In this document: in pieces, positions 30,806 through 62,340 of the stretch
Layout: every line of letters starts with the position of its first letter
Numbering within the stretch: position 1 is the stretch's first letter
DNA from: an uncultured Gemmatimonadales bacterium
GTDB taxonomy: Bacteria > Gemmatimonadota > Gemmatimonadetes > Gemmatimonadales > GWC2-71-9
NCBI GenBank assembly: GCA_963695555.1
Contig: CAVOGR010000012.1
Span: 29,743 to 93,742 of the forward strand
Direction: 5' to 3'
DNA: 64,000 nt
Program-made: the position numbers and the translations under genes
The notes under the pieces: generated by a model
Seen by the model: only the letters and a program-made list of their open reading frames with translations
Database searches by the model: none
Told to the model about the DNA's origin: nothing

Positions 30806-30879
30806 TCGGGACGGCGGGATTTGAACCCGCGACCCCTGCAACCCCATTGCAGTGCGCTACCGGACTGCGCCACGTCCCG
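30806..30879 (-). tRNA. tRNA-Pro(GGG)
   Basis: CGGGACG acceptor, D-arm GCGCAGTCCGGTAGCGC, anticodon arm CTGCA-AT-GGG-GT-TGCAG, T-arm GGTTCAAATCC; no encoded CCA. Confidence 0.95.
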
Positions 30880-31784: not shown

Positions 31785-32696
31785 CTAGTGCTCCGCGGTC
31801 GGTCGGCAAATCAGCACGGGCACGGTCGCGCCGCGCAGTATCTTGTCGGCGACGCTTCCGAGCAGGAAGCGGCGGACGCCTGATTCTCCATGGCTCGCGA
31901 TGGCCACCATACCGGCGTCGTTCTCCTCGACGAGACCGAGAATCGTCGTCGCGGTGTCTCCTCCAGACGCGATTCGGGTGATCACAGCCAGGCCCTTCTG
32001 CCGCAGGACACCCGCGAGGGCACCGAGATAGGCTTCCGCTTGCGATTCCAACTGCTTGGCAACTTCCTCGTCATACCCGACAACGTACGGTAAGGGCGGC
32101 TCCGCAATCGGGAGAGGCGGGTGGACCACGTGCAGCAGCACCAACTCCGCTTGGAACATCGCGGCCAGGTCTCCGGCAGGGCCGAGCACCGTCTCCCCGA
32201 AGCCCGAGCGATCGAGGGCTACCGCAATCCGAGCCGGGACGGGCGCCGGCCCAGCGGAGGTGTCATCGGGGTCCGTCCGGATCAGGACCATCGGGATCGG
32301 CAGCGACCGAACCAGCCGGTCAGCGACACTTCCCATCCAGAATCGGTTGAAGGCACCTCGCCCATGGGTGCTCATCACGATGAGGTCCGGCCGCGTGTCG
32401 AGGACGTGCGTGCTGATGGCCTCGGCCACCGGCCCTTCGAGCAACGACGTGGTCGTCTTGATGACCTGACCCGGAACCAACCGCCCGGGCGCCTGACCCA
32501 GATATGCCTGCGCCGCCTTCCGAGAGGCCTCGGCATAGGCAGTAAACCCCTCGGGAATACCGCCGGGCACGGCTGAGTGATGGACCAGGACGAATTCGAG
32601 CCCGGCGCCCGAGCGCTCGGCGATGGCTCGCGCAAGAGGTACGGCGGCTTCGGCGGAGTGCGAGCCATCGAGCGGAACGAGAATCGTGCGATACAC
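31785..32696 (-). CDS. Universal stress protein (tandem USP domains)
   Basis: ILVPLDGS..AEAA, DLIVMSTHGRG....WMGSVADRLVR, SHGESG..RFLLGSVADKILR. Confidence 0.92.
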   Translation of the reverse strand: MYRTILVPLDGSHSAEAAVPLARAIAERSGAGLEFVLVHHSAVPGGIPEGFTAYAEASRKAAQAYLGQAPGRLVPGQVIKTTTSLLEGPVAEAISTHVLDTRPDLIVMSTHGRGAFNRFWMGSVADRLVRSLPIPMVLIRTDPDDTSAGPAPVPARIAVALDRSGFGETVLGPAGDLAAMFQAELVLLHVVHPPLPIAEPPLPYVVGYDEEVAKQLESQAEAYLGALAGVLRQKGLAVITRIASGGDTATTILGLVEENDAGMVAIASHGESGVRRFLLGSVADKILRGATVPVLICRPTAEH

Positions 32697-32764
32697 CAGT
32701 ACCTCCTCAGCTCCGAATCGGCCTTGCGGCGAAGGAGCCCTTTAGAAATGTCGGCTGCGCAGTG

Positions 32765-32791
32765 TGAAGGACCTGTGAAGCCCTCGCGAAC
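32765..32791. promoter_or_regulatory. Triple direct repeat (11-bp period) between divergent USP and cyc2-like genes
   Basis: TGAAG-gacctg-TGAAG-ccctcg-CGAAC. Confidence 0.6.
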
Positions 32792-32912
32792 CTCCCTTGC
32801 GCACCCCAATCTTCCATATTTCTTCCACTGGCGTTCATGCACGGAGTCCTACTGTAGGCGGGTCATGAGGCAAGCCAACTCACCGCCGGCACAACAGAGG
32901 AGGTACGATTCC

Positions 32913-34106
32913 ATGCCGCGTCGTGTGTTCCAGGGGTCCACGCTGGCCGTGCTCGGTATCCTGCTCGCATTCCCGGTGCGGAATGCTGACGCCATTCCCG
33001 TCTTTGCCCGGCGATACAAGGTCAGCTGCCAGCTGTGCCACAACGTCATCCCGGCACTCACCGCCTTTGGGGAGACCTTTGCGGGCAACGGCTTCCGCAT
33101 GGCGCCGCGCGAGGAAAGCCCGGGTCTCCTCGCCACGGGCGACAGCGCGCTGTCGCTCCTCGAGCAATTTCCCTTGGCCGCACGCTTGGACGCCTACGTC
33201 CAGGGGTTCGCCAATGGCAACGCGGTGACCGATTTCGAGACCCCGTACGGCCTCAAGATCCTGTCGAGCGGGGCGATCTCGAAATCGATTTCCTATTACT
33301 TCTATGCCTTCCTGTTTGAGCGCGGCGAAGTCGGCGGTGTCGAGGACGCGTTCCTTTACGTGGATGACATCAAGGGAGCCAAGCTCGACCTCGCAGTAGG
33401 CCAGTTTCAGATCTCCGACCCCATTTTTAAGCGGGAGCTTCGGCTGGAGTTCGAGGATTATGCCGTGTACCGTGCCCGCGTCGGCGATTCTCCGGTCGAC
33501 CTCACCTACGACCGCGGCATCATGGCCATTGCCGACATCGCCGGCTTTACGGTGACCGGCGAAATCGTCAACGGAAACGGGAAGGGCGAAGCACTCCCCA
33601 ACCGTCGATTCGATGGCGATGGCGGCAAGGATGTGCTGCTGCACGTGTCGCGGGACGTGACCGAGGGCCTTCGGCTCGGGGCGTTTGGATACTACGGCCG
33701 GGCGCGGAGCGGGGGGTTCCGGAACGAGACGAGCATGTTCGGCGCGGACGGTACCGTGACGCACGGCGCCCTGGAATTCAACGTCCAGTACATTCACCGC
33801 GAGGACGATCGCCCGACCTTTGCGCTGTCAGAGCCGCGCGCCAAGCTGGACGGAGGGTTCGGCGAGCTTCTGGTTCGCCCGCCAGGGAGCCCGTGGTACG
33901 GATTCGCCCTCTACAACCTGGTGTCTACCAATCGTCCCCTGCTCGACGTGAGACTCGGTGGACCGGCCAACGTCGATCGATACGAGGCCGTGTCGGCGGG
34001 GGTCGGGCGCTTGATCCAACGCAACCTGCGGGTGACAACCGAGCTCACCTACGATATCGAACTGGAGGAAGGTCGATGGACACTCGGATTCGTAACTGCC
34101 TTCTGA
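32913..34106 (+). CDS. cyc2: Cyc2-like fused monoheme cytochrome c / outer-membrane porin
   Basis: Signal peptide, then AIPVFARRYKVSCQLCHNVIPALTAFGETFAGNGF, matching the Cyc2 N-terminal pattern AxPxFAR..CxxCH...PxL...G..F..G(Y/F). Followed by a beta-strand-rich barrel ending in Phe (LGFVTAF). GGAGG RBS. Confidence 0.8.
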   Translation: MPRRVFQGSTLAVLGILLAFPVRNADAIPVFARRYKVSCQLCHNVIPALTAFGETFAGNGFRMAPREESPGLLATGDSALSLLEQFPLAARLDAYVQGFANGNAVTDFETPYGLKILSSGAISKSISYYFYAFLFERGEVGGVEDAFLYVDDIKGAKLDLAVGQFQISDPIFKRELRLEFEDYAVYRARVGDSPVDLTYDRGIMAIADIAGFTVTGEIVNGNGKGEALPNRRFDGDGGKDVLLHVSRDVTEGLRLGAFGYYGRARSGGFRNETSMFGADGTVTHGALEFNVQYIHREDDRPTFALSEPRAKLDGGFGELLVRPPGSPWYGFALYNLVSTNRPLLDVRLGGPANVDRYEAVSAGVGRLIQRNLRVTTELTYDIELEEGRWTLGFVTAF

Positions 34107-34483
34107 CCGTTGCCGCCTTGGTGTGCTTGGCCCCAGCCCTTGCGGCCCAGGAAAAGACGGTCGAGACCCCGAAGGACGTGACGCCGGAGACGATCGCCGC
34201 GGGAAAGAAGCTGTTCGGCGGTACGGGCCTGTGCAGTGCGTGTCACGGAGCAAAGGCGGAAGGCGGGGTCGGGCCAAACCTGATTGATGAAGAATGGATC
34301 CACAGTACCGGAACTTACGACGAGATCGTCGCCCAGATCCTCGCTGGCGTGCCTGCAGGCAAATCGAAAAGCGGCATTCCCATGCCGCCGAAGGGTGGCT
34401 CGTCACTCAACGAGGAACAAGTCAAAGCGGTGGCCGCGTACGTCTGGTCGCTGAGCCACCAGCCGGCCAAGAAGGCGGGCTAG
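34076..34483 (+). CDS. Periplasmic monoheme cytochrome c
   Basis: Signal peptide, CSACH, GPNL...WIH, distal Met in IPMPPKGG; start overlaps the cyc2-like 3' end. Confidence 0.9.
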   Translation: MDTRIRNCLLTVAALVCLAPALAAQEKTVETPKDVTPETIAAGKKLFGGTGLCSACHGAKAEGGVGPNLIDEEWIHSTGTYDEIVAQILAGVPAGKSKSGIPMPPKGGSSLNEEQVKAVAAYVWSLSHQPAKKAG

Positions 34484-34716
34484 CCCGCGCCTCCATTGTC
34501 GTCGGTGCGTCGGCAGGTCCGGATGCCCAGCCAGGCATAGAGCGGGCAAAACCCGGTGATGGCTGTGGCGATGAAGCCAAGCCCGAGGAGGGTCACGTAC
34601 TTCCAGGGAGAATCGAGCGCCCCATAGAGCCCGAGCAGCATCACGCCGAGCACCAACCGGATCGCTCGATCGACCAGACCCGCATTTCGCATGGCACGCG
34701 ATGGCGTTCCCGTCAT
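34480..34716 (-). CDS. DUF2892 (YgaP-like) small membrane protein
   Basis: NAGLVDRAIRLVLG, TAITGFCPLYAWLGIRTC. Confidence 0.88.
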   Translation of the reverse strand: MTGTPSRAMRNAGLVDRAIRLVLGVMLLGLYGALDSPWKYVTLLGLGFIATAITGFCPLYAWLGIRTCRRTDDNGGAG

Positions 34717-34726
34717 GTTGGGTGCC

Positions 34727-35656
34727 TCACAACGGGACGGTGAGAACGGCGCAGGGAGCCCGGTGCGTCAGCTGTCGGGCCACGCTACGAGATTCCAGCG
34801 GCCCCGGCGGACCGCCGCGATGATATCCCACCACCAGCACTCCCGCCTGGGTATCCGATAACTCCTGCAAGATTTCCGGAACCGGACTGCCGCGCCGAAC
34901 GGTGAGCCGCTCGGCTGCGGACGACTTCGGCTCTAACCGGCCGTCCTGTTCGCCATGCATCGCGAGCTGGTCGAGATCCCGGGCCAGCATTACGCTCCGC
35001 TCGCCGGGAAGCCGCTCGGCGAGGTGAGATGACTCATCGTCGTGTGGCGGCTCGACCGTCACAAAGGAGACATCTTGGCCGATCGCCTGGGCAAAGGCGA
35101 TACCCGCGTGGACCACGGCAAGACCCCGTTCGGTGCCGTCCGCCGCCACCAGAATGGGTGACTCGTCGAATCCATCGGGTGGCACGAAGAGACAGGGCAC
35201 CGGACTCCGGCGAACCACGGAGTCGGCGGTGTCGCCAAGCAACATCCGGCGCAACTGAGAATGGCGCTTTCGGGTCATGACAATGAGGTCGGCCTCGTGG
35301 TCCTCCGCGTACCGGGTGATCTCGACAGACGGAAGGCCCAGACCCACCATGCAGGCCACCGGAACGTCGGCGCCTCCGCAGTCGGCTCCGCGTGGTCCCG
35401 ACCGCCACCAGAGGCAGAGATTGTCGTACTCCTCTGCGAGCCCGTCCCGATCCGGCACGGGCGCAATGGCCTCCATGGAAACTTCCATCGGCCGCTGCAA
35501 CACCGCCGTCGCAACGTAGATTACGCTGACCCGGGCGTGAGCCCGGCCAGCGATGCCCACGGCCGTAGCCTGGGCCGCTCGGGCCGCCTCGGTCTTGTCG
35601 CACGCCACGACGAGATGCCGGAGATTCATTGCGGGTCGCGATCGAACACGAGTCAC
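34727..35656 (-). CDS. Universal stress protein (tandem USP domains)
   Basis: ADLIVM......LLGDTADSVVRRSPVPCLFV, ILVAADG, SVARQL..RAPCAVLTVP. Confidence 0.85.
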   Translation of the reverse strand: MTRVRSRPAMNLRHLVVACDKTEAARAAQATAVGIAGRAHARVSVIYVATAVLQRPMEVSMEAIAPVPDRDGLAEEYDNLCLWWRSGPRGADCGGADVPVACMVGLGLPSVEITRYAEDHEADLIVMTRKRHSQLRRMLLGDTADSVVRRSPVPCLFVPPDGFDESPILVAADGTERGLAVVHAGIAFAQAIGQDVSFVTVEPPHDDESSHLAERLPGERSVMLARDLDQLAMHGEQDGRLEPKSSAAERLTVRRGSPVPEILQELSDTQAGVLVVGYHRGGPPGPLESRSVARQLTHRAPCAVLTVPL

Positions 35657-35680
35657 CCACCTAGGATGGCGTTCATCGGA

Positions 35681-35707
35681 TGAAGTGATGATGAAGCCTC
35701 CTGTAAG
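35681..35707. promoter_or_regulatory. Triple direct repeat (11-bp period) between divergent USP and sensor kinase genes
   Basis: TGAAG-tgatga-TGAAG-cctcct-GTAAG. Confidence 0.6.
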
Positions 35708-35766
35708 CCAGGATCGGCCGTCGAGGCGGGTCGCCCTACCGAGGCCAGGTGCTTAGACTCCAGTCT

Positions 35767-37020
35767 ATGCCCTCCCCCAGGTCCAGAGCCTCGCAGGCGC
35801 GGCTCGAGCGCCTCCTCTCGGCCGGACTCGACTTGACGTCGGTTCTCTCGCTCGACGGCGTGCTTCGTCGGGTCGTCGATCTCGCATGCGAGATCATCGG
35901 CTCGCGCTATGCCGCCATGGGATTACTGGGACCCGACGGGAAATCGCTCCAGCAGTTCGTCACCGCCGGGATCGAGCCGGCGGACTACGCCGCCATCGGT
36001 CGCCCGCCCAAGGGGCTGGGCGTGCTGGGACTCGTCATGCGGGACGGCAAGATCCTCCGGCTCGAGAACCTGACCCAGCACCCCGAGGCCCACGGGTTTC
36101 CGCCGGGGCACCCACCAATGCGCTCCTTCTTGGGCGTGCCGATCGTGGGTCGGCGCGGCAGCATTGGCATCCTCTACATCGCGGAGAAACTCGAAGGCGG
36201 GGCGTTTACCGAGGATGATGAGTACATCGCCCGCCTCATGGCCGCACAGGCGGCGGCAGCGGTCGAGAATGCACGCCTGCATGACGAGAGTGCACGCCTC
36301 CTCGAAGAAGTGCAGCAACTGCACCGGTCGAGGGAGCGCTTCTTCGCCATGGTCAACCACGAGCTGCGGAACGCACTCGCCGGCACCTATGGGTGGGCCG
36401 AGATGCTGGTCCGTCGAAAGGACCCGGCGACGGTGCCCCGCGCGGCATATGAAGTGCTCGACTCCGCCGAGCAGGCCGTCAGCCTGATCAACGACCTGCT
36501 CGACTTGAGCAGACTCGACGAGGACCGGTTGAAGCCGAAGATCGAGGAGGCGGTGCCCGCCGCGATTGTCCGTAGAGCTATCGGGCGGGTGACGCCGGCA
36601 GCCGAAGCCAGGCCTGCCGGGCTCGAGTTCCACGGCGAGAACGAGATTCCGACCTGTGCCACCGATGCCCATCGTGTGGAACAGATCCTGGTGAACCTGC
36701 TGACCAACGCCATTCAGCACAGCCCGCCCGACACGACTGTTCGCACCACCCTCCTGGCGACCGAGGACGCGTGCCGCTTCATGGTCGACGACGAGGGCCC
36801 AGGCATCCCCGAGGACGACCTCGAACGGGTGTTCGACATCTATGCCACAAAGCCTCGTGCCGGGTCTCAGGGCACGGGAATCGGCCTGCCGCTGTCACGG
36901 CGGCTGGCTCGCGTGCTCGGCGGGGAGCTGTGGGCGGAAAACCGGCCCAGCGGCATCGGAGCTCGCTTCGTGCTCGAGCTACCCCAGGTCAGGCGGAGAG
37001 TTGACCGGGTCTCACCGTGA
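35767..37020 (+). CDS. Soluble sensor histidine kinase with DosS/DevS-like GAF domain
   Basis: GAF PKGLGVLG...LRLENL..HP...GFPPGHPPMRSFLGVPI; HisKA NHELRN; HATPase NLLTNA, DEGPGI, GTGIGL; no TM helix. Confidence 0.9.
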   Translation: MPSPRSRASQARLERLLSAGLDLTSVLSLDGVLRRVVDLACEIIGSRYAAMGLLGPDGKSLQQFVTAGIEPADYAAIGRPPKGLGVLGLVMRDGKILRLENLTQHPEAHGFPPGHPPMRSFLGVPIVGRRGSIGILYIAEKLEGGAFTEDDEYIARLMAAQAAAAVENARLHDESARLLEEVQQLHRSRERFFAMVNHELRNALAGTYGWAEMLVRRKDPATVPRAAYEVLDSAEQAVSLINDLLDLSRLDEDRLKPKIEEAVPAAIVRRAIGRVTPAAEARPAGLEFHGENEIPTCATDAHRVEQILVNLLTNAIQHSPPDTTVRTTLLATEDACRFMVDDEGPGIPEDDLERVFDIYATKPRAGSQGTGIGLPLSRRLARVLGGELWAENRPSGIGARFVLELPQVRRRVDRVSP

Positions 37021-37053
37021 AGGTTTCTTCATAAATGGTTCCTCCAGGGTTCA
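37018..37053. promoter_or_regulatory. Regulator box upstream of the response regulator
   Basis: Palindrome TGAAG-gttt-CTTCA overlapping a triple 11-bp-period repeat CTTCA/GTTCC/GTTCA, ending 11 nt before the -10-like TAGGTT. Confidence 0.6.
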
Positions 37054-37077
37054 TCTGCCCGCTCTAGGTTCGGTATC

Positions 37078-37800
37078 ATGAAGATCCTCATCGTGGAAGA
37101 CGACCGGAAGGTCGCCGGGTTCATCGAGCAGGGCCTCAAAGAGGAAGGGTATGTCGTCGATGTCGCCTCGGATGGTGATGAGGCGACCATGCTGGCGCAT
37201 GTCTATGACTACGACGTCATCCTCCTCGACATCGTGTTACCGAAGAAGAACGGCTTCCAGATCGCCACCGAGCTTCGGCGCGAGGGCAAGAGCACTCCGA
37301 TTCTGATGCTGACGTCTCGCGATGCTGTGGAAGACGTGGTGCGGGGATTGGATGCCGGCGCGGACGACTACCTGTCGAAGCCGTTCCGTTTCGATGAGCT
37401 GCTGGCTCGCATCCGGGCGCTGGTGCGGCGCGGCGGCGCCGAACGGCTCGAGATCCTACGCTACGGCCCAGTGTCCCTCGACCGCCTCCGCCATCTCGTC
37501 ACCGTGTACGACGAACCGCTGGATCTGACGCCCAAGGAATTCCAGCTCCTCGAATTTTTCCTTCTCCATCCCGAGGAAGTGGTGCGGCGGACGACGCTGC
37601 TCGAGAAGGTCTGGGATATGCACTTCGACCCCGAGAGCAATGTGGTCGATGTCCATGTGGGAAACCTCCGGCGTAAACTGACCCAAGCCGCTGGTGAACG
37701 GCTCTTGTCCACGGTCCGCGGAGTGGGCTTCGCGCTCCGCCATGACGGCAAGGCCTCCTCGACCACCTCATCAGCAGAGCTCGGCCAGACGGCTCCGTGA
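37078..37800 (+). CDS. OmpR/PhoB-family response regulator (CusR/CzcR-like)
   Basis: MKILIVEDD, LLDIVLP, GADDYLSKPF, LTPKEFQLL, VWDMHFDPESNVVDVHV. Confidence 0.95.
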   Translation: MKILIVEDDRKVAGFIEQGLKEEGYVVDVASDGDEATMLAHVYDYDVILLDIVLPKKNGFQIATELRREGKSTPILMLTSRDAVEDVVRGLDAGADDYLSKPFRFDELLARIRALVRRGGAERLEILRYGPVSLDRLRHLVTVYDEPLDLTPKEFQLLEFFLLHPEEVVRRTTLLEKVWDMHFDPESNVVDVHVGNLRRKLTQAAGERLLSTVRGVGFALRHDGKASSTTSSAELGQTAP

Positions 37801-39629
37801 CCGGTCGGCTGCGGGCCTATGCCCGACCCGGTATAACTCTCCTCTTCATCATCGCAGGCTTTCTGCTGTGGCTCCGTCCGGGCACCACCCAGACGGGGGC
37901 CACGGTCTGGCTGATCGGGTTGGCGCTCACCGGCGCCCCCGTGGTGTGGGGCACGGTGCGAGGAATCCTGATCGGGCGATGGGCTGCCGATGTGGTGGCC
38001 ACCCTGGCCATTCTCACGGCACTCGCGCTCCGCCACCCGCTGGCCGGCCTCATCGTGGTGCTCATGCAGACCGGCGGCGAGGCGCTCGAACGATATGCTG
38101 CGGGAAGGGCATCCGCCGCCGTGCGTGATCTCGAAGCCGCGGCGCCACGCACGGCTCACCGCTACCGGCACGAGGAGGTCGAGGATATTCCCGTCGACCT
38201 GATTCGGGTCGACGACCAGCTCCTCGTGCGTCCGGGTGAACTGATCCCCTGTGACGGGATCACAATCACGGGCCGGTCGAATGTCGACACCTCACGGCTG
38301 ACCGGGGAGCCCCTCCCCGTCGAAGCGGGCCCTGGCACCGTCCTCTTGAGTGGAAGCGTCAACGGAGCGGGCGCCCTCAGGATGCGAGCCACCGCCTTGG
38401 CACGCGAGAGCCAGTACGCCTTGATCGTCGAGTTGGTCCGAACAGCTCAGGCGAGCAAGGCACCGTTGCAGCGCGTCGCCGATCGCTACGCCGTGTGGTT
38501 TACCCCGCTCACCCTGGTGGCCTGCCTCGTGGCATTTGCCTGGTCGGGCGAGGCCGAGCGGATTCTGGCGATCCTGGTGGTCGCCACGCCCTGCCCCCTC
38601 ATCCTCGCAACGCCGGTTGCCATCATCGGAGGCGTCAACCGGTGCGCCCAGGATCAGGTCATCGTGCGCACCGGGGCGGCACTCGAGCAGCTCAGCCAGG
38701 TTACTGTCGGGGTCTTCGACAAGACCGGCACGTTGACCATCGGGCGCCCTCAGGTGAAACAAGTGGTGGCCTTAGCACCGTTCACGGAGCTTGAGGTGTT
38801 GCGTCTGGCCGGTGCGATCGAACAGCAATCGAGCCACCTGCTCGCGCGCACGCTGGTCGAAGCGGCCACGGCCCGTGGGATCAGGTTCCCCGACGTGCAT
38901 CATGTCGTCGAGGCTCCCGGATCGGGCATTCAAGGGATGGTGGAGGAGAAATCCGTCTCGGTGGGGTCCTTGGCGTATCTCAAGACCACCGACCCCGCGG
39001 CAGCGGTGGGCTTTGCAGAACTGGGACAGGGTGCCGACGGCGTCCACGCCTTCGTCGCCGTCGAGGGTAAGCCCGCCGGAATGGTGGAATACGCCGACCG
39101 CATCCGGCCGGAACTTGGCTCGTTCCTCGCACGACTGAATGCGCTGGGCATCCGCCGCACCATCCTGCTCTCGGGAGACATTACCGCCAACGCCGTGGCA
39201 GTGGGGAAGGAACTCGGCATCCAGGAGATCCACGGCGACCTGCTACCTCAAGACAAGGTGAGCCTCGTCCGTCAACTGGTCGATGCGGGCCAGAAGGTCC
39301 TGATGGTCGGGGACGGGACCAACGACGCGCCCGCCCTAAGCACCGCCACGGTCGGCGTGGCGCTGGCCGCACACGGCGGCGGGATCACAGCCGAAGCGGC
39401 CGATATGGTAGTGCTGGCGGACGACCTCAACCGGGTGGCCGATGCCGTCGCCATCAGCCAACGAACGCTGCACATCGCGCGTCAGAGTATCTGGGTCGGC
39501 CTCGGCTTGAGCGGCCTCGCCATGATCATCGCGGGCCTCGGGTACATTCCGCCCACCGTGGGTGCGTTGCTGCAGGAAGGCATCGACGTGACCGTGATCC
39601 TCAATGCCGTCCGGGCGAGCGCATCATGA
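37797..39629 (+). CDS. Heavy-metal P-type ATPase, P1B-5 type (no hemerythrin tail)
   Basis: LTGEP, TM motif ATPCP, FDKTGTLT, MVGDGTNDAPAL, QSIWVGLGLS, PPTVGALLQE. Confidence 0.9.
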   Translation: MTGRLRAYARPGITLLFIIAGFLLWLRPGTTQTGATVWLIGLALTGAPVVWGTVRGILIGRWAADVVATLAILTALALRHPLAGLIVVLMQTGGEALERYAAGRASAAVRDLEAAAPRTAHRYRHEEVEDIPVDLIRVDDQLLVRPGELIPCDGITITGRSNVDTSRLTGEPLPVEAGPGTVLLSGSVNGAGALRMRATALARESQYALIVELVRTAQASKAPLQRVADRYAVWFTPLTLVACLVAFAWSGEAERILAILVVATPCPLILATPVAIIGGVNRCAQDQVIVRTGAALEQLSQVTVGVFDKTGTLTIGRPQVKQVVALAPFTELEVLRLAGAIEQQSSHLLARTLVEAATARGIRFPDVHHVVEAPGSGIQGMVEEKSVSVGSLAYLKTTDPAAAVGFAELGQGADGVHAFVAVEGKPAGMVEYADRIRPELGSFLARLNALGIRRTILLSGDITANAVAVGKELGIQEIHGDLLPQDKVSLVRQLVDAGQKVLMVGDGTNDAPALSTATVGVALAAHGGGITAEAADMVVLADDLNRVADAVAISQRTLHIARQSIWVGLGLSGLAMIIAGLGYIPPTVGALLQEGIDVTVILNAVRASAS

Positions 39630-39640
39630 AGAGCCCTTCA
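39627..39640. promoter_or_regulatory. Palindromic regulator box upstream of the ba3 oxidase operon
   Basis: TGAAG-agcc-CTTCA, same geometry as the palindrome at 37018. Confidence 0.5.
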
Positions 39641-39755
39641 CGGAGCGCGGTCCGAACTCACCCTTGAGAAGATCCGGTCCGGCTCCTATCTTCGGCCCCT
39701 GATCGTTCACCGACCTCCATTTCGCGCCATCGCAGCACACTGTGAGGAGGTATTG

Positions 39756-39896
39756 ATGTCCGAAATGCCCCCCGGGCTCCCCAAGCATCCGATCGGCACC
39801 TTCGCGTTCGTGGCGACGTACATCATCCTGTTCGTCATCGGGTGGCTCGCGATCTACCTGTTCATCTTCCTCGCTCGTCAGCCGGTGACACCATGA
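39756..39896 (+). CDS. cbaD: ba3-type oxidase subunit IIa (46 aa; absent from the ORF track)
   Basis: GAGGAGG RBS. MSEMPPGLPKHPIGTFAFVATYIILFVIGWLAIYLFIFLARQPVTP resembles Thermus IIa (P.G.....W..Y..F.AR). Stop overlaps the cbaB ATG. Confidence 0.85.
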   Translation: MSEMPPGLPKHPIGTFAFVATYIILFVIGWLAIYLFIFLARQPVTP

Positions 39897-40429
39897 AGGT
39901 CGATCTCTACGAACGCATCTGGATGTATGGCGTGGCTGTCGTCCTCGCAGGGTTCTTCGTGAGCACCGCCATCGCGGCTTACGGAAGCCAGATCCATCCC
40001 CCGAGCCACGTCGAGACCATCGATCCCCGAACGGCGATCACCGACCCTCGGATGGCGCCGCAGGGTGTCTCGGTCGATGCCGACGGCCGGGTACACGTCC
40101 GAGTGGTCGGCGTCACGTTTGCCTGGTTGCCCGCCGAGGCCACGGTGCCCGCCGCCACACCGATCACCTTCCACATCACAGCAGCCGACGTGGTGCACGG
40201 CTTCCAGATCGTGGGTAGCAACGGCCAGGCCATGGCCATACCCGGCTACATCAGTCAGTTCACGACCCAGTTCATGACGCCCGGAGAGTATCTCATCGTG
40301 TGCAATGAGTACTGTGGCGTGGGGCATCATATGATGGCCGGCAAGTTGATCGTGGCGCCGAAAGACTCCTGGCAGGCCCCGAGCCCTTCCCGGTCTTCAG
40401 AGCCGGAGTCTGAGGAGGTGGAGGAATGA
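39893..40429 (+). CDS. cbaB: ba3-type (family B) heme-copper oxidase subunit II
   Basis: YERIW single TM, ETIDP, DVVHGF, CuA motif CNEYCGVGHHMM. Confidence 0.92.
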   Translation: MKVDLYERIWMYGVAVVLAGFFVSTAIAAYGSQIHPPSHVETIDPRTAITDPRMAPQGVSVDADGRVHVRVVGVTFAWLPAEATVPAATPITFHITAADVVHGFQIVGSNGQAMAIPGYISQFTTQFMTPGEYLIVCNEYCGVGHHMMAGKLIVAPKDSWQAPSPSRSSEPESEEVEE

Positions 40430-42078
40430 CGGCACCGACCAACGGACCGATCCAGGCCACCGAACGGCGCCTCATTCTCGCCCATATCTGGGTAGCCGTC
40501 CTCGCGTTCGGCGTCGCTGCCGGCATGGCCATGATGCAGGCGCTGAGCCGGGCCAACCTGCAATTGCCGTATCGGTCGGCCCGGATGTACTACATGTCAG
40601 TGACCGGCCACGGCGTTCTGATGGCGCTGGTCTTCACGACCTTCTTCATCATGGGGCTGGGGTACGTCATCGCCAGGAAGGAAACGGGTGGCATCCGCTG
40701 GCCCAAGTTTGCGTGGGCCATGTTCTGGTTGGCGCTCTTCGGCACGGCCTTGGCGGGCTGGGCCATTTTCAGCTTCCGAGCGAGCGTGCTCTATACGTTT
40801 TACCCGCCGCTCCAGGCCCACCCGGCGTTCTATATCGGCCTCACGCTCGTCATCGTGGGATCGTGGGGCTGGGCGGCGAACATGATCGCGACGTGGCGTG
40901 CGGCGCGGCGACTGTCCGCGGAGCGGCCGGTGAGTCTCGCGATGCACGCGACGACCGTCAACGCGTTGCTCTGGCTCCTGGCGACGCTTGGGGTAGCCGC
41001 GGAGATGCTGTTCTTGCTCATCCCGTGGTCGCTCGGCTGGGTCGAGACGGTGGACCCGCTCCTGGCTCGGGTTCTCTTCTGGTACTTCGGTCACCCGCTG
41101 GTCTATTTCTGGATCCTACCGGCCTACACCATCTGGTACACCGTGCTGCCGCGCGAGGCCGGCGGCAAGTTGTTTTCCGAGCCACTGGGCCGGATGGTCT
41201 TCATCTTGTTCCTCATCCTGTCCACCCCGGTAGGCTTCCACCATCAGTTCCAAGACCCTGGCATTCCGGCCAACTGGAAGATGCTCCACACCCTGTTGAC
41301 CATGGCTGTAACGTTCCCCAGCCTGGTCACGGCGTTCACGGTGTGCGCATCCCTCGAGGTCGCGGGACGCCTTCGCGGCGGGACGGGCCTCTTCGGTTGG
41401 ATTCGTCGATTGCCGTGGGGTGACCCGTTTGTGGCCGCATGCCTGCTCGCCATGTTGCTATTCTTGGTCGGAGGATTCGGCGGTGCCGTCAATGCCGCGT
41501 ACGCCCTCAACTCCGTCGTGCATAACACGGCGTGGATCCAGGGCCATTTCCACCTGACCGTGGGTAGCGCCTCGGCGCTGACCTTCATGGGGGCGTGCTA
41601 CTGGCTGGTGCCCAAGATATCCGGGCGAGAACTGGAACTCCGCCTGTTGGCCAAACTGCAACCGTACCTCTGGTTTGGCGGCATGGTCCTGTTCTCGTTC
41701 ACCAACCACATCACCGGCCTCATGGGCCTCCCGCGGCGGGTATTCGAAACCGGGTTCTCCAACGCGCCCCAAGCCCAAGCCTGGGAATCGCTCACCACCG
41801 TCTCGGCACTCGGCGGCGTGCTGCTCTTTGTCAGCGCAGGATTCTTTGTGCTCGTAATGCTGGGCACGCTGCTCGCCGGTCAGCGCAAGGAACAGCCGGA
41901 GATCGAGTGGGCCGAACCGCTGGCCGCGCCCGCCGGAGGATTCCGTAACGGGCTCTGGGATCGCCTGGGATTGTGGTTTGCTGTGGCGGTGGTCCTGGTC
42001 CTCATCGCCTACGCGATGCCGCTTTGGGACATCCTCAGCATGACCCGGTACGGGAGTCCGGGCTTCAAGCCTTTCTGA
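40426..42078 (+). CDS. cbaA: ba3-type (family B) heme-copper oxidase subunit I
   Basis: TGHGVLMALVFT, LFWYFGHPLVYFW, PVGFHHQF.DP, VHNTAWIQGHFHLTV, GLPRR. Confidence 0.94.
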   Translation: MTAPTNGPIQATERRLILAHIWVAVLAFGVAAGMAMMQALSRANLQLPYRSARMYYMSVTGHGVLMALVFTTFFIMGLGYVIARKETGGIRWPKFAWAMFWLALFGTALAGWAIFSFRASVLYTFYPPLQAHPAFYIGLTLVIVGSWGWAANMIATWRAARRLSAERPVSLAMHATTVNALLWLLATLGVAAEMLFLLIPWSLGWVETVDPLLARVLFWYFGHPLVYFWILPAYTIWYTVLPREAGGKLFSEPLGRMVFILFLILSTPVGFHHQFQDPGIPANWKMLHTLLTMAVTFPSLVTAFTVCASLEVAGRLRGGTGLFGWIRRLPWGDPFVAACLLAMLLFLVGGFGGAVNAAYALNSVVHNTAWIQGHFHLTVGSASALTFMGACYWLVPKISGRELELRLLAKLQPYLWFGGMVLFSFTNHITGLMGLPRRVFETGFSNAPQAQAWESLTTVSALGGVLLFVSAGFFVLVMLGTLLAGQRKEQPEIEWAEPLAAPAGGFRNGLWDRLGLWFAVAVVLVLIAYAMPLWDILSMTRYGSPGFKPF

Positions 42079-42088
42079 GCATCAGCGC

Positions 42089-42125
42089 CAGGCACTGGCC
42101 CACCAGCGTGGCGGGTCAGTGCCTG
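42089..42125. terminator. Hairpin between convergent cbaA and KamA-family genes
   Basis: caggcactggccc ... gggtcagtgcctg 13-bp stem. Confidence 0.6.
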
Positions 42126-43282
42126 TGCTGGCGCGGTTCGATCCGGTCCGACCAGCTGTGGGGATCGTATGCCCGGGCCGCCTCGATCGCGCTCTGAGGA
42201 CCGGCCAGCACCGTGAGCTGGTCCAGCCAATAGGCCCGATCGTCCCGTCGGGCGATGATCATGCGCCCGTAGTCCTCTCGGCGATGGGCTCGGTGATAGC
42301 GGAGGTAGATGAGGTCGTCATCGACCCCGCAGATTTCCAGCTTTCCGACGTGATGGGACATGACGAAACGGGCGCGCTTGGCCAGCCCCGAAATGCGGCG
42401 GTTGGCCTCGAGAAAGATCTTCCAGCCCTCAACGATCGGGACCTCGTAGGGCTTGTTTCCGACGGTGGGCCGTCCCTGGAAGACGTAGTAGGGCGGGCAA
42501 CCTTCGAATGACAGCTCGCGAAAGAGGGTGGCGAGTATGTGAGGCCGGTCGTTCACCCCTCGCACGATCGGGCACTGGTTGACGATCTGGGCGCCGGCGG
42601 CCAAGAGCCGGCGCAATGCTTCCCTCGCCTCGGGAGTCAGTTCTCGAGGATGGTCGAAGTGGTTCATGATGTAGATCTGCGTTCCACTCTCGCCGTACTC
42701 GCGGATGAGCGACAGCAGCGCCGGGTCCTCCAGCACCCGGAAGGGATTGAACGCCGCCATCTTCGTTCCGATCCGTACGATCCGCACATGCGGAACCGCG
42801 GCCAGGTCGCTGATGATCTCGCCAAGCCGGCGGGTGGACAGCATGAGCGGGTCGCCCCCGGTCAAGAGCACGTTCGTGATCTCCTCGTGCTCCGCGATGT
42901 AGTCGAGCCCCTCCCGATAGTCGAGTGACGCCTCGTCGTTGTCGTCCATGAAGAGCCGCTTCCGGAAACAATACCTGCAGTAGGCCCCACACACCTCGTT
43001 CACCAACAGGAGCGCCGTGTCGGAGTACTTGTGCTGGCAGCCCCTGACGGGGGTGTAATCCGCCTCTCCGCTGGCGTCGAGCGTCCCCCAATTCTCAGCC
43101 TCTTCGGTGCGGGGAATCACGAGCTGTCGTATGGGATCGTTGGGATCATCCCAGTTAATCAGGCGCTCGTAGTAATCGTTGAGTCGGAACGCGTAGCGAT
43201 CAGCCACCGGTTGGAGCCGGCGACGCTCCTCCTCGGACAATCCGGCGAGCTTGCCGAGGCGCCGTGTGTAACGAACTTTCAT
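42116..43282 (-). CDS. KamA-family radical SAM protein (lysine 2,3-aminomutase-like)
   Basis: NDPIRQLVIP, HKY..TALL, CGAYCRYCFRKR, NVLLTGGDPL, HFDHPREL, NQCP..RGVND; GGAGG RBS. Confidence 0.9.
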   Translation of the reverse strand: MKVRYTRRLGKLAGLSEEERRRLQPVADRYAFRLNDYYERLINWDDPNDPIRQLVIPRTEEAENWGTLDASGEADYTPVRGCQHKYSDTALLLVNEVCGAYCRYCFRKRLFMDDNDEASLDYREGLDYIAEHEEITNVLLTGGDPLMLSTRRLGEIISDLAAVPHVRIVRIGTKMAAFNPFRVLEDPALLSLIREYGESGTQIYIMNHFDHPRELTPEAREALRRLLAAGAQIVNQCPIVRGVNDRPHILATLFRELSFEGCPPYYVFQGRPTVGNKPYEVPIVEGWKIFLEANRRISGLAKRARFVMSHHVGKLEICGVDDDLIYLRYHRAHRREDYGRMIIARRDDRAYWLDQLTVLAGPQSAIEAARAYDPHSWSDRIEPRQHRH

Positions 43283-43520
43283 GGCCACCTCCTTCGACGC
43301 GACACCCATGGCCCACGCACCTCCCTTGCGGGAGCACCATCGACCACCGGGGTTGGGGGAAGAACGGACAGGGTGCGGAGCGCTGAGCCGTATGTCTAGC
43401 CCGTGGCCCCACTCGCAAACGGACTCGAGGCCCGCCGCGTTGTCCTGCCCTCGGCGTCCAACTGGAGCGCAGGTTCTTTCTTCAAGATACCCCCTCATAG
43501 TTGGGCCGCACGTTTCGATA

Positions 43521-43536
43521 TGAAACTTCCCTGAAA
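43521..43536. promoter_or_regulatory. Direct repeat (11-bp period) upstream of the KamA-family gene
   Basis: TGAAA-cttccc-TGAAA. Confidence 0.4.
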
Positions 43537-43630
43537 GGGAAATCGCGACTCTGGGCTGAGGATGGACAGAATCGAGCCCGAGTCTGCCAACGAGAGCCCT
43601 AGCTTGGTAGACTTGGACAGTGCGGCGCCT

Positions 43631-43645
43631 TGGCACGATGGATGC
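43631..43645 (+). promoter_or_regulatory. Putative sigma-54 (-24/-12) promoter of the RRE operon
   Basis: TGGCACG-ATGG-ATGC with exact GG-N10-GC spacing, 57 nt before the RRE ATG. Confidence 0.6.
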
Positions 43646-43702
43646 CGGCATGCGGCACCAGTATCAACGGTCTCGTGTCGTCACCCCGCTCTGAGGAGAG
43701 GA

Positions 43703-44053
43703 ATGAGCCCACCGGATCGGCTTCCAGTTGCGACCGCTCATGTCGTGTATGGCCCCCTGTCGGACGGTGCGGTGCTGTTCTCCACCAAGGACGAGGTCTA
43801 CTTCGGCCTCAATCAGGTGGGGGCGCAGGTTTGGGAATTACTCCCTCCAGCGACCCGCACGCTCACCGAACTCTGCGCCAATCTCGAGCGACGATTCGAG
43901 GGCATTGCCCCCGATGTCCTGAGACGTGATGTGGCGGCCCTGCTCGACGACTTGCTCGCCAATGACCTCGTGGAGTATCTCGACCAGGAGCGCGCCGATG
44001 CCGGGACGGATCCGGACACTGATCGGCAAGCTGATTCGCCTCCGACCGCGTGA
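43703..44053 (+). CDS. PqqD-family / RiPP recognition element (RRE, lasso B1-like)
   Basis: DGAVLF....EVYFGLNQVGAQVWELL....T..ELC..L...F......LRRDVAALLDDL; GAGGAGAGG RBS. Confidence 0.88.
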   Translation: MSPPDRLPVATAHVVYGPLSDGAVLFSTKDEVYFGLNQVGAQVWELLPPATRTLTELCANLERRFEGIAPDVLRRDVAALLDDLLANDLVEYLDQERADAGTDPDTDRQADSPPTA

Positions 44054-44459
44054 GTGGGTGGACCTCCTGCGGGCGCAAGCTGCCTTGCTGGTAGCCCAGG
44101 TCGTCGTGTGGACGCGACCGCACGGCCGCTTGGTGTCCCGGAATCCCGCCCCGCCGGCTTCCGCTCAAGCGCAAGCACAGGCCGCGCCTCGGGCGGAGGC
44201 GCTGGCACGCGCCATCCACCGGGCCGCTCACTACGGTCTGACCCGCCCCGCCTGTCTCGTGCGCGCTATTGCCCTGCGGCGCATACTTGCCTCCAGTGGC
44301 TTCGACGCGGTGGTTCGCGTGGGCGTCCGGCAGCGGAATGGAAGCCTCGATGCGCATGCCTGGGTCGAGCTCGACGGAGCGGTGCTGGGAGACCACGAAT
44401 CGAATACGGAATCGTTCACCGAACTGTCGGACCTTCACATCGCCGAGAAGGGGCGATAG
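43998..44459 (+). CDS. Lasso-peptide B2-like transglutaminase-fold peptidase
   Basis: ACLVRAIAL (catalytic Cys), VRVGV, DAHAWVELDG (His/Asp). Confidence 0.88.
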   Translation: MPGRIRTLIGKLIRLRPREWVDLLRAQAALLVAQVVVWTRPHGRLVSRNPAPPASAQAQAQAAPRAEALARAIHRAAHYGLTRPACLVRAIALRRILASSGFDAVVRVGVRQRNGSLDAHAWVELDGAVLGDHESNTESFTELSDLHIAEKGR

Positions 44460-44463
44460 CGCG

Positions 44464-45417
44464 GTGCCAGACCTCGCGATGTACGGTGGCATCTTACGGT
44501 CGGAACTTCCCTTCCCCGACCTGCGGCCCAGCTCAGGGGGCGAGCCCTCGTGGTGGTTCCGTCGATCCGCCGACCGGCCTCCGGACTGCGCCGGGGAGGT
44601 CCTGGGCGAGGAGACGTTCGAGGGACCGGTCCGTCTCGCGGTCACCAAGATGCCCACCGGTCTTCGATTCGCCTACACCGACACCGGGGTGTTCGATATC
44701 TCCGACGGCGGACGGAATCTCGTGTGGTATCCCACCGCCGGCGCCCCGCTCGACCTTGCCAGGATCGACGTGATGGGGCGTGTCATGGCCGGTGCGCTCC
44801 ACCTCGGCGGACTCCTCTGTCTGCATGGCAGTGCCGTCGCATTGGGAGCCGGGTCCTGCGGCATCGGGTTCCTCGCGCCCAAGCACTACGGCAAGTCCAC
44901 GCTCGCGTTCGCCATGACGCAACGCGGCGCCCAACTGCTCACCGACGATACCTTACCCGTCGAGTTCAGTCATCCGGTGCGACTCCGGCCCGGTGTGCAC
45001 AGCGTCCGACTGTGGACCGACTCCGCTGAGCGGCTCGCCTCAGATCGGATTGGGACCGGCCGCGAGTATGGCGGCAAGCACATCGTCGATCGGCTCCCCG
45101 AAGACCGGATTGCCGACCAGGCGGTCCCGTTGTCCGCCATTTATGTATTGAATCCGCCAGGCGAGCAGACCCAGCCGGCCTTGGTGCGCCGCGCTCGCCT
45201 ACCGGACGTGCCTGCAGCCATGGCCCTGGTCCGGCATGCGAAAATTGGAGCGTTGCTTGGGAAGAGTGAGGCGCCGGTGTTGTTCGAGCGCGCCGTTGCC
45301 ATGGCCCGGGCGGTGCCCGTCTATGACCTCGACTTCGTCCGCGACTTTGCCCAGGTCGACCATGTCGTCGGCCAACTCATGGAATGGCATGCCATGGCCA
45401 CCAATACTCGCGTATGA
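44464..45417 (+). CDS. HprK-related (lasso-cluster-type) kinase
   Basis: YGGILRSELPFPDL, LHGSAV, Walker A variant APKHYGKST, LLTDD. Confidence 0.85.
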   Translation: MPDLAMYGGILRSELPFPDLRPSSGGEPSWWFRRSADRPPDCAGEVLGEETFEGPVRLAVTKMPTGLRFAYTDTGVFDISDGGRNLVWYPTAGAPLDLARIDVMGRVMAGALHLGGLLCLHGSAVALGAGSCGIGFLAPKHYGKSTLAFAMTQRGAQLLTDDTLPVEFSHPVRLRPGVHSVRLWTDSAERLASDRIGTGREYGGKHIVDRLPEDRIADQAVPLSAIYVLNPPGEQTQPALVRRARLPDVPAAMALVRHAKIGALLGKSEAPVLFERAVAMARAVPVYDLDFVRDFAQVDHVVGQLMEWHAMATNTRV

Positions 45418-46541: not shown

Positions 46542-46604
46542 GAAGTGACGTCGGGTGAGCACTTGGTGGGGTGGGAACGTCGGCGCGCCGCACATGCAGC
46601 CGAG

Positions 46605-46676
46605 AGCCACTGGTCGGATTTGAACTGACGACCGCTCGATTACGAATCGAGTGCTCTACCCCTGAGCTACAGTGGC
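46605..46676 (-). tRNA. tRNA-Thr(CGT)
   Basis: GCCACTG acceptor, anticodon arm CTCGA-TT-CGT-AA-TCGAG, T-loop TTCAAAT. Confidence 0.94.
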
Positions 46677-46696
46677 GAGGCTGCGGGTGACTGCCA

Positions 46697-46778
46697 TGCC
46701 CTGGCGCGGATTCGAACCGCGACGCCTTTCGGCACTACCCCCTCAAGATAGCGTGTCTACCAATTTCACCACCAGGGC
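46697..46778 (-). tRNA. tRNA-Leu(GAG)
   Basis: GCCCTGG acceptor, D-arm GTGAAATTGGTAGACAC, anticodon CTATC-TT-GAG-GG-GGTAG, long variable arm, GGTTCGAATCC. Confidence 0.95.
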
Positions 46779-61554: not shown

Positions 61555-62340
61555 CTAGCCGCGGGGGTGGTAGCGAGAGTGCACCTCCTTCAGATACTCG
61601 CGCTCGACCTGCGTGTAGATCTGCGTGGTGGTGATCGACGCATGACCCAGAAGCTCCTGGACCACCCGCAGATCGGCTCCGCGGGCGAGAAGATGGGTCG
61701 CGAACGAGTGTCGCAGCATGTGCGGGCTCACCGCCCGACCAAGGCCGGCCCGGCTGGGCGTGCACGGCGCAGGAGATCCCAGACTCCGGCGCGCGACATG
61801 CGGTTGCCGCGATGGTTGAGGAAGATCTCCCGGCCGGTCCCCCGGCTCCTGAGTTGCGGGCGGCCGCGCTCGAGGTACTCGGCCAATGCCCGTGCTGCTG
61901 GCTCGCCCATCGGTACCGCGCGCTCGCGGCCTCCCTTGCCCAGACACACGACGTAGCGCTCATCGAGGTTCACGGCGCCGAGCGCGAGGCCGACGAGCTC
62001 CGAACACCCCAGGCCGGTCGCGTAGAGGAGCTCGATCGCGGCCCGATCGCGCAGCCCGAGCGGTGTGCGCGTATTGGGGGTGTCGACCAGGGCGAGCACC
62101 TCGGCCTCGCTGAGCACGCGCGGCACTCGCCGGGTGAGCCGCGGCCGTCCGACCTGTTCCGCCGGGCTCGCCGTGATCGTGCCCTCGGTGGACAGGTAGC
62201 GGAGAAATCCGCGCAGCGAGGACAGGTGGCGGGCGACCGAGCTTGCTGCCAGACCGCGCCCGCTCAGCCGCGCGAGATGCTGCGCCAGCTGCTCGTAGCG
62301 CAGCCCGCCGAGCGGCCAGGCGGACCGGATGCCGGCGGAA
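61555..62340 (-). CDS. xerD: Tyrosine recombinase XerD (5'-truncated, frameshifted)
   Basis: [71 protein letters not shown]. Confidence 0.88.

Follow-up and report, generated by a model that had tools for sequence, protein, structure and literature searches.

The window analysed here is a stretch of 64,000 nucleotides (nt) from contig CAVOGR010000012.1 of an uncultured Gemmatimonadales bacterium, in which an island of about 11.5 kb combines a Cyc2-like porin-cytochrome and a periplasmic cytochrome c with two tandem universal stress proteins (USPs), a DUF2892 protein, a haem-GAF sensor kinase, an OmpR-type response regulator, a P1B-type metal ATPase and a ba3 oxidase (cbaD-B-A), followed by a gene of the KamA family. 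All of these genes had been named in an earlier note made from the sequence alone, and all are present (Table 1). The best explanation of the whole, in which we place somewhat more belief than doubt, is a regulon governed by a haem-based gas or redox sensor, with a possible electron path to the ba3 oxidase. Its regulatory part, a haem-sensor regulon for low O2 or NO/CO, appears probable; uptake of electrons from Fe(II) or another donor feeding ba3 is put forward tentatively.

In the proposed mechanism, the cytoplasmic kinase would sense O2 (or NO/CO) through its DevS/DosT-type haem GAF domain, and the ligand-free kinase would phosphorylate the OmpR-type regulator, which would bind 11-nt direct repeats (TTCAY-N6-TTCAY) standing in for a -35 element. 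Three units would be activated: the two tandem-USP genes with DUF2892; the kinase-regulator operon running on into the P1B ATPase and cbaD-B-A; and the Cyc2-like porin-cytochrome with the periplasmic monohaem cytochrome c. Electrons would pass from an extracellular donor, most plausibly Fe(II), to the Cyc2-like protein, the cytochrome c, the CuA centre of ba3, and finally O2. We infer the identity of the regulator as repeat binder, low O2 as the signal and co-transcription of ba3 with the kinase operon, and likewise the electron path from the Cyc2-like protein through the cytochrome c to ba3 and Fe(II) as its donor. Since a coupled cytochrome c gene and a cytochrome c oxidase lie under the same presumed control, a chain for electron uptake to O2 is plausible. 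The most specific version, in which a DevS/DosT-type sensor rewired to an OmpR-type regulator turns on a three-protein Fe(II)-to-O2 route when O2 falls, is rather doubtful in that full form.

DevS/DosS and DosT have haem-binding GAF-A domains of solved structure, which residues 35-181 of the sensor kinase match with E values of 1e-35 to 6e-35. In DosS, His149 is the proximal ligand and Tyr171 the distal residue, and DosT has a glycine where DosS has Glu87, according to the published account (PMC4082495). Counted along the alignment, His121, Tyr143, and Gly58 of the window kinase correspond to DosS His149, DosS Tyr171, and DosT Gly85, and orthologues from other Gemmatimonadota loci retain the histidine and tyrosine in 31 of 31 cases and the glycine in 30 of 31. 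The kinase contains this single GAF domain and a HisKA domain (PF00512), with no periplasmic sensor and no transmembrane segments. By these residues it is a DevS/DosT-type haem GAF sensor with predicted haem binding, which bears out the DosS-like kinase of the earlier note. Its partner regulator carries a Trans_reg_C domain of the OmpR type and shares 70-86% identity with its orthologues in related loci. Of 301 Gemmatimonadota species genomes sampled, 111 carry the sensor domain; for the window's own family the figure is 101 of 125. The window's genome (G000) holds a second DevS-like GAF kinase (G000:C1:67093-69213; L126 3093-5213, minus strand), a protein of 706 amino acids (aa) arranged as PAS-PAS-GAF-HisKA-HATPase, with 54% identity to the window GAF and a CBS-pair gene nearby.

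In a hand tally over the same 301 genomes, 30 have both the kinase and a ba3 orthologue (at least 59% identity); the two are no more than 12 kb apart in 24 of them and on different contigs in the other six. Orthologues of ba3 occur in 65 of the 301. Kinase and Cyc2-like gene are both present in 26 genomes, in 11 of which about 10 kb or less separates them, and kinase, ba3 and Cyc2-like gene all fall within about 10 kb in four genomes only (G000, G023, G134, and G281). Where 8 kb is available on either side of the Cyc2-like gene (32 loci), the regulator is found in 7, the kinase in 8, and a USP in 8. USP genes adjoin the kinase or the ba3 operon in related loci, with the divergent USP/kinase layout kept in L093 and L100-L105, and DUF2892 is found again in L040 and L054 and directly 5' of the Cyc2-like gene in L045.

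The linked genes take two architectures. Type I, that of the window, has USP(-DUF2892-USP) divergent from kinase-regulator-P1B(-cbaDBA); the P1B gene follows the regulator in L040, L093, L094, and L100-L105, and is followed by cbaDBA on the same strand in the window, L093, and L094. Type II occurs in two forms, kinase-regulator-second kinase-cbaDBA-P1B and USP-CBS-cbaDBA-two ZIP genes-kinase-regulator-second kinase-DUF2892-Cyc2-like-cytochrome c. In type II, exemplified by L045 1849-9895 (also L039, L051, L071, and L095-L097), a CBS-pair protein separates USP from cbaD, cbaA is followed by two ZIP-family metal transporters, and a second, membrane-type histidine kinase follows the regulator. 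This pattern of recurrence indicates that sensor, regulator, USPs, ba3 and a metal transporter make up the conserved core. As gene context suggests, the Cyc2-like gene and its cytochrome c are a frequent but accessory addition, keeping their operator even where they lie elsewhere in the genome.

The operator consists of 11-nt-periodic direct repeats of [C/G]TTC[A/C][T/C/A] (TTCAY-N6-TTCAY). A generic repeat finder run on the island returned no shared motif, and the motif surfaced by comparing intergenic regions. The strict pattern STTCMH-N5-STTCMH has 7 matches in the 64 kb against 0.87 expected, a number reached in 0 of 100 shuffles, and six of the seven lie in three intergenic regions of the island: USP1/Cyc2-like (3), USP2/kinase (1), and kinase/regulator (2, forming a triple repeat). 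Because the strict pattern was derived from the window's own sites, the independent test is recurrence in other genomes, for which the relaxed form TTC[AC][CT]-N6-TTC[AC][CT] was used, leaving out L001 and L002, which belong to the window's genus (97% and 95% identity). The 450 nt 5' of the Cyc2-like gene contain 31 exact matches over the 78 other loci, spread across 25 of them and with 30 on the gene's strand; the remaining 45 bins, some 1.1 Mb in all, contain 37. Of the 67 loci with a flank long enough for a positional test, 24 have a site matching at 9/10 or better 130-175 nt upstream of the FAR codon, against 0-3 of 67 in each of seven control windows. The operator 5' of the Cyc2-like gene occurs irrespective of the neighbours, including loci where that gene stands beside LysR/TerC/rhodanese genes.

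In other loci TAnnnT usually follows about 11 nt downstream of the repeat; in the window, GTTCAT at 32833-32838 precedes TACTGT at 32850-32855 and the ATG at 32913. Repeat-N11-TAnnnT would correspond to the layout of a PhoB/OmpR-type class II promoter, with TACTGT as a presumptive promoter element. Sites of the USP2/kinase type are also present in L040, L054, L090, L093, L101, L102, and L103, sites resembling the triple repeat lie 5' of the regulator in L102 and L103, and a conserved CTTCATAAAG..GTTCAC element precedes the regulator in L039, L043, and L047. Across 12 loci with a kinase or regulator orthologue, 12 exact matches fall in 22.9 kb of intergenic DNA and 7 in 208.8 kb called coding, three of these seven being true intergenic DNA mislabelled by crude gene calling. 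The intergenic matches precede USP(-CBS-cbaDBA) in L043, L045, L047, L051, and L071 and cbaD in L051, stand in the kinase/USP region of L040 and L054, and precede the Cyc2-like gene in L039, L048, and L060. In 20 further kinase loci, 17 of 28 exact matches, read from coordinates, flank a kinase, regulator or USP gene, in 10 of the 20 loci. The earlier proposal that most promoters of the island share one motif holds for three of about five promoter regions and extends to other genomes, but the cbaD promoter is without a full site. A common operator that would link the USP, Cyc2-like and kinase/regulator promoters, conserved across the phylum, is supported by these distributions.

Prediction of a genome-wide regulon with the relaxed repeat was attempted and rejected as too unspecific, the sites preceding mixed genes: a Na/Ca exchanger, a Ser/Thr kinase, a HAMP kinase, a citrate carrier, outer-membrane proteins, an extracytoplasmic function (ECF) sigma factor, and a multihaem cytochrome. 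The last of these, G000:C1:580960-582420 (419 aa, c554/c7-type), has exact repeats just upstream at 582326 (-) and 582408 (+), and is a possible further member of the regulon. A Pho-regulon reading, drawn from the OprP-like barrel and the pho-box-like repeat, was rejected on the genome's own phoB-phoR-porin-pstS locus, which is not enriched for the repeat (3 one-mismatch matches against 2.37 expected, none in promoters). On that result the Pho regulator is not what binds the repeat. Between the phoR-like gene and pstS of that locus lies G000:C7:416225-417382, encoding 385 aa that end in ...VSF and match no NCBIfam family; it looks like an outer-membrane porin of the phosphate locus.

Cyc2 has been defined by a signal peptide, one CXXCH, the motif AXPXFAR[Q/K][T/Y] before it and PXL four residues after it, together with a 16-strand porin resembling OprO/OprP and a length of at least 365 aa (PMC8406198; Keffer et al. 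2021), and the characterised Cyc2 proteins are Fe(II) oxidases according to the same work. The window protein matched no Pfam or NCBIfam family. Its N-terminus, MPRRVFQGSTLAVLGILLAFPVRNADA, ahead of the conserved block, is a signal peptide by inspection, with a model helix at residues 3-19; the protein then reads NADA-IPVFARRY-KVS-CQLCH-NVI-PAL and terminates in ...TAF. CQLCH occupies residues 39-43, with C39, C42, and H43 invariant in 26 of 26 aligned sequences, and P29, F31, A32, R33, Y35, P47, L49, and the last F are likewise invariant among the 26. The PXL feature is present as NVI-PAL (P47 and L49). The Cyc2-like protein of the earlier note agrees with the published definition save at one position, AIPVFARRY having R where the published motif has Q/K. 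Among the 120 closest homologues, 119 carry PxFARx[T/Y]-xxx-CxxCH-xxx-PxL, the variable residue being R in 108 and K in 11. A profile search returned 3151 representative proteins at E <=0.001; of its 150 best representatives 44 are full-length (at least 360 aa), and 18 of these bear the strict motif. As most close homologues have R where Q/K is asked for, a strict screen by the published motif would drop most of the clade.

An AlphaFold model based on the 26-homologue alignment reached a mean predicted local distance difference test (pLDDT) of 62.4 and a predicted template modelling score (pTM) of 0.65, with 16 long strands starting at residue 88. A Foldseek search with this model ranked OprP (2o4v, E 2.7e-10) first and OprO (4rjw) third. 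Cluster look-ups for distant relatives gave only 'hypothetical protein' entries from metagenome-assembled genomes (MAGs) of Gemmatimonadota or Gammaproteobacteria, and the clusters from ESM Atlas bore no names, with Porin_O_P assigned to 20% of the members in one of them. Compared by motif and fold rather than against a biochemically tested Cyc2, the window protein is filed as Cyc2-like and appears continuous with the Cyc2 family. The cytochrome c gene overlaps it by 31 nt, in agreement with the coupling claimed earlier, and a cytochrome c homologue lies just 3' of the Cyc2-like gene in 29 of 71 loci (600 nt flank). A single copy of the Cyc2-like gene is present in the window's genome (3.57 Mb, 87% complete).

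The surroundings of the Cyc2-like gene vary. In 'Bacterium HR33' (L053 11216-14819) two multihaem cytochromes follow it, one with an MtrC/MtrF-like domain, and in L055 two monohaem cytochromes c come after it, with a cytochrome b/Rieske pair facing it. It adjoins PstS-family binding-protein genes or a pst-like ABC transporter in L076 (11310-13806) and among L050, L058, L072, and L075, and an Fe(2+)-trafficking (YggX-like) gene lies near it in L050, L069, L072, and L075.

B-family oxidases have high O2 affinity, and the oxidase of the island belongs with them by alignment to Thermus ba3, as the earlier note had it. CbaA matches Thermus ba3 (1ehk/1xme) at E 1.3e-126, against 4e-19 for the best A-family chain, with the haem and CuB ligands and GHPxVY, HH, and HxH aligned. 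In CbaB the CuA ligands C..C..H..M and H align to Thermus, within CNEYCGVGHHMM and VVHGF. Judged by these ligands, the enzyme is a B-family ba3 oxidase with an intact CuA site, and of the cytochrome c type rather than a quinol oxidase. The cbaD-like ORF (open reading frame) encodes a hydrophobic product of 46 aa and overlaps the cbaB start with its stop; neither Pfam nor NCBIfam has a family that it matches, and relatives found by tblastn precede cbaB in other loci (43-80% identity). Besides ba3, the window's genome has an A-type oxidase as well as a third haem-copper oxidase; cytochrome bd was not found in it, which at 87% completeness does not show absence.

The translation of the P1B ATPase contains TPCP in transmembrane helix 4 (ATPCPL), QEGID, and DKTGT. 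A (T)PCP in helix 4 with QEXXD in helix 6 is what we take to define the P1B-5 class, which would place the window ATPase there. Its best relatives in a tblastn search against plasmids reach at most 45% identity and bear generic P1B names. For Nia of Sinorhizobium meliloti, the P1B-5 class is said, from a paper's title, to be tied to Ni/Fe transport and root-nodule expression. The P1B-5 assignment made in the earlier note is retained as far as the P1B core, TPCP and QEGID go, but the protein has no hemerythrin-like tail: neither an N-terminal metal-binding domain nor a hemerythrin match was found, and it stops right after the last membrane helix. A hemerythrin-like domain at the C-terminus is present in only some P1B-5 members (PMC9388753).

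Several observations weigh against the proposed regulon and its electron path. The haem domain of the Cyc2-like model (residues 22-86) has pLDDT <50. The Cyc2-like gene is patchy, found in 45 of the 301 genomes against 111 for the sensor, and in 20 loci that have no regulator its neighbours are unrelated (LysR/TerC/rhodanese, YggX/RidA, ArsR/DUF4142). In most genomes it occurs independently of ba3 (45 and 65 of 301), ba3 lies near it in only 4 of the 32 loci with 8 kb on both sides, and the full 11.5 kb arrangement is confined to the same genus (L001, L002; G023). The earlier idea of the island as a conserved whole is not upheld, the Cyc2-like gene standing in many other contexts. Upstream of cbaD there is one half-site only and no full operator, and the relaxed repeat is unspecific genome-wide, with 103 matches, 49 of them intergenic, before unrelated genes, so that another OmpR-family regulator could be the binder. 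The best NCBIfam match of the regulator is the heavy-metal CopR/CusR/CzcR group (232 bits, below cut-off). No RuBisCO or other CO2-fixation marker was found in the window's genome, which at its completeness does not show absence; classical autotrophic iron oxidation is therefore unlikely. In the estuary metatranscriptome X1, which holds 77% of sampled words, contigs extend over all 30 bins at a flat depth of 5-15, convergent gene ends included, and such coverage cannot show transcription, strand or level; the RNA libraries X20-X22 gave scattered short pieces only.

These observations bear on three other accounts. The oxidase and the Cyc2-like protein may be co-regulated and not wired together, with ba3 fed by the bc-complex and cytochrome c and the Cyc2-like protein acting alone, for example in surface Fe(II) detoxification at low O2. 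The mostly independent occurrence of the two genes, their meeting with the kinase within about 10 kb in four genomes, the conserved company of metal transporters (P1B in type I, two ZIP genes in L045), and the Fe(2+)-trafficking gene near the Cyc2-like gene in four loci all fit such an arrangement, which we nevertheless consider unlikely, as the translationally coupled cytochrome c, present again 3' of the Cyc2-like gene in 29 of 71 loci, implies that electrons are passed on through the periplasm and do not meet a dead end. Under the same regulon, electrons could also flow outward, the Cyc2-like protein and cytochrome c exporting them to Fe(III), Mn(IV) or humics and ba3 scavenging residual O2. 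Multihaem conduits of the Mtr type are known for outward transfer, and a monohaem porin-cytochrome differs from them; the adjacent partners, where present, are a monohaem cytochrome c and a cytochrome c oxidase. Outward flow is made improbable by these features and by the characterised Cyc2 proteins, which oxidise Fe(II) (PMC8406198), even though it would suit the two multihaem cytochromes with MtrC-like domains behind the Cyc2-like gene of L053 and a genome (87% complete) in which RuBisCO was not found. A survey of marine Gemmatimonadota MAGs also leaves room for outward flow, annotation being unable to separate iron oxidation from reduction for Cyc2 homologues (PMC11316326).

That the two-component system senses metal (Cu/Fe/Ni) stress rather than gas, the island being a metal-homeostasis unit, is very improbable. 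The CopR/CusR/CzcR match of the regulator points that way but falls below the NCBIfam cut-off; the P1B ATPase in the same operon and the ZIP transporters of type II loci point the same way. Opposed to metal sensing are a kinase without periplasmic sensor or transmembrane segments, whose sole sensor domain is the haem GAF, and a haem pocket in which His and Tyr are invariant in 31 of 31 orthologues. The haem-sensor regulon with a possible path to ba3 remains the preferred explanation.

The gene map combines the ORF listing with Pfam and NCBIfam scans of the 64 kb window, which has a G+C (guanine plus cytosine) content of about 65%; its last 2 kb (62001-64000) have a G+C of 0.476 against 0.61-0.70 elsewhere. 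The listed Cyc2-like ORF reaches too far upstream, to GTG 32577; its real start is ATG 32913 after GGAGG, and the start of the P1B ATPase overlaps the regulator stop by 4 nt.

Table 1. Genes and putative regulatory elements of the island, in window coordinates.
Feature	Position	Strand	Supporting evidence
USP1, tandem universal stress protein, 303 aa	31785-32696	-	Pfam Usp E 1e-52, two domains/stretches
Cyc2-like fused cytochrome-porin, 397 aa	32913-34106	+	Signal peptide, AIPVFARRY-KVS-CQLCH-NVI-PAL, 16-strand barrel, C-terminal F
Periplasmic monohaem cytochrome c, 135 aa	34076-34483	+	CSACH; Pfam Cytochrome_CBB3 E 1.3e-12
DUF2892 / YgaP-like transmembrane protein, 78 aa	34480-34716	-	PF11127 E 5.2e-18
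USP2, tandem universal stress protein, 309 aa	34727-35656	-	Pfam Usp E 3e-38; divergent from kinase
Cytoplasmic sensor kinase	35749-37020	+	Haem-type GAF (His121, Tyr143, Gly58) + HisKA + HATPase
OmpR/PhoB-family response regulator, 240 aa	37078-37800	+	
P1B-type metal ATPase, 610 aa	37797-39629	+	TIGR01525 496.5 bits, cut-off 346
cbaD-like small single-helix subunit, 46 aa	39756-39896	+	No Pfam/NCBIfam family
cbaB, ba3 subunit II with CuA ligands	39893-40429	+	Thermus ba3 subunit II E 6e-24
cbaA, B-family (ba3) subunit I	40426-42078	+	Thermus ba3 E 1.3e-126
KamA-family radical SAM enzyme, 511-aa ORF	42116-43651	-	TIGR00238 206.9 bits, cut-off 199.2
Operator cluster, USP1/Cyc2-like divergent region	32764-32780; 32811-32827; 32822-32838	-; +; +	Repeats
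TACTGT, -10-like hexamer	32850-32855	+	11 nt past last repeat, 57 nt before ATG
Operator, USP2/kinase divergent region	35680-35696	-	CTTCATCATCACTTCAT
Triple 11-nt repeat, kinase/regulator gap	37027-37054	+	CTTCAT-N5-GTTCCT-N5-GTTCAT

The KamA gene, inside which the island of the earlier note ended (43282), is found next to the island in no loci but L001 and L002 and is therefore taken as a neighbour, outside the regulon in which the earlier note had placed it. It adjoins a PqqD-like gene (43562-44053), an unassigned 382-aa ORF and an NTP_transf_5 nucleotidyltransferase (45384-46541), and 42116-46541 looks like a small peptide-modification cluster, of the kind making ribosomally synthesised and post-translationally modified peptides (RiPP-like), separate from the regulon. 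Contigs of RNA libraries X1 and X20 have two extra G after 43446, within the N-terminal extension of the KamA ORF; the family match begins only at residue ~121, and the gene's strand bears a copy of the repeat with one mismatch at 43520-43535. The true start of KamA may lie further downstream, in which case the gene might also have an operator. A tRNA-Pro (30806-30879) and a tRNA-Thr/tRNA-Leu pair (46604-46778) bracket about 15.7 kb with the island and the RiPP-like cluster. A mobile-island reading based on these flanking tRNA genes was dropped, as no att-like repeat, integrase or GC shift was found.

Cyc2 homologues are a common genomic marker for iron oxidation, and they have already been reported from annotation in Gemmatimonadota MAGs, where the published work stops at annotation (PMC11316326). 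The earlier suggestion that the combination of genes is undescribed is qualified by that report, but at the level of search results the literature on Gemmatimonadota with Cyc2, ba3 or DosS/DevS/DosT, and on Cyc2 with ba3, yielded no description of it. Within that literature, the new elements are the DevS/DosT-type haem sensor rewired to an OmpR-type regulator, the tight linkage of sensor and ba3 across a Gemmatimonadota family, and the conserved operator before the Cyc2-like gene. The analysis adds a regulatory handle, namely an operator before the Cyc2-like gene and a candidate haem sensor beside a low-O2 oxidase. The DevS/DosT haem-GAF module would be used outside Actinobacteria with a different output regulator, and is near-universal in the window's own family. 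If the rather doubtful three-protein Fe(II)-to-O2 route is real, many Gemmatimonadota would be facultative, heterotrophic microaerobic iron oxidisers, and the conserved operator would serve as a genomic marker for when Cyc2 homologues are used. The cluster suggests how Gemmatimonadota, abundant in soil and sediment, cope with low O2 and perhaps draw electrons from iron.

Comparison with known systems places each part of the island. The Cyc2-like protein resembles Mariprofundus Cyc2PV-1 and Acidithiobacillus ferrooxidans Cyc2 in its signal peptide, single CXXCH, xPxFARx[Y] five residues before and PXL four after, with about 400 aa and a 16-strand barrel, for which OprP and OprO are the most similar solved structures; it differs from the Cyc2 of classical iron oxidisers in having R for Q/K and a Gemmatimonadota host in which no RuBisCO was found. 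The rus operon of Acidithiobacillus ferrooxidans has the order cyc2-cyc1-cox genes-rus and, like the island, brings an outer-membrane Cyc2, a periplasmic c-type cytochrome and a cytochrome c oxidase to one locus, whereas the window has ba3 rather than aa3, a monohaem cytochrome, no rusticyanin, and genes spread over three transcription units with a haem-GAF two-component system embedded. The oxidase shares with Thermus thermophilus ba3 (cbaD-cbaB-cbaA) the aligned ligands, GHPxVY, and a small single-helix ORF in front, differing in its regulatory context and in a small subunit that matches no library family. The ATPase has the P1B core, TPCP and QEXXD of P1B-5 ATPases such as Sinorhizobium meliloti Nia and the Acidothermus cellulolyticus enzyme, unlike the members with a hemerythrin-like domain in lacking one. 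The promoters recall class II activation by PhoB at pho boxes, with 11-nt direct repeats about 11 nt before a -10-like hexamer replacing the -35 element, although, unlike in the Pho regulon, the repeat is not enriched at the genome's own pho locus.

The closest parallel to the sensor is DosS (DevS)/DosT, with a homologous GAF domain, a proximal His, a distal Tyr, and a DosT-like Gly. The window kinase differs in having one GAF instead of GAF-A and GAF-B, HisKA (PF00512) instead of HisKA_3, and an OmpR/PhoB-type partner instead of the NarL/LuxR-type DosR; it thus shares the sensor module and is not a DosS/DosT orthologue, and the OmpR/PhoB-type partner would account for an operator made of an 11-nt direct repeat. 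USPs are members of the Dos regulon in mycobacteria, and USP genes are prominent here as well; unlike those of the Dos regulon, the predicted targets in the window include a terminal oxidase and an outer-membrane cytochrome.

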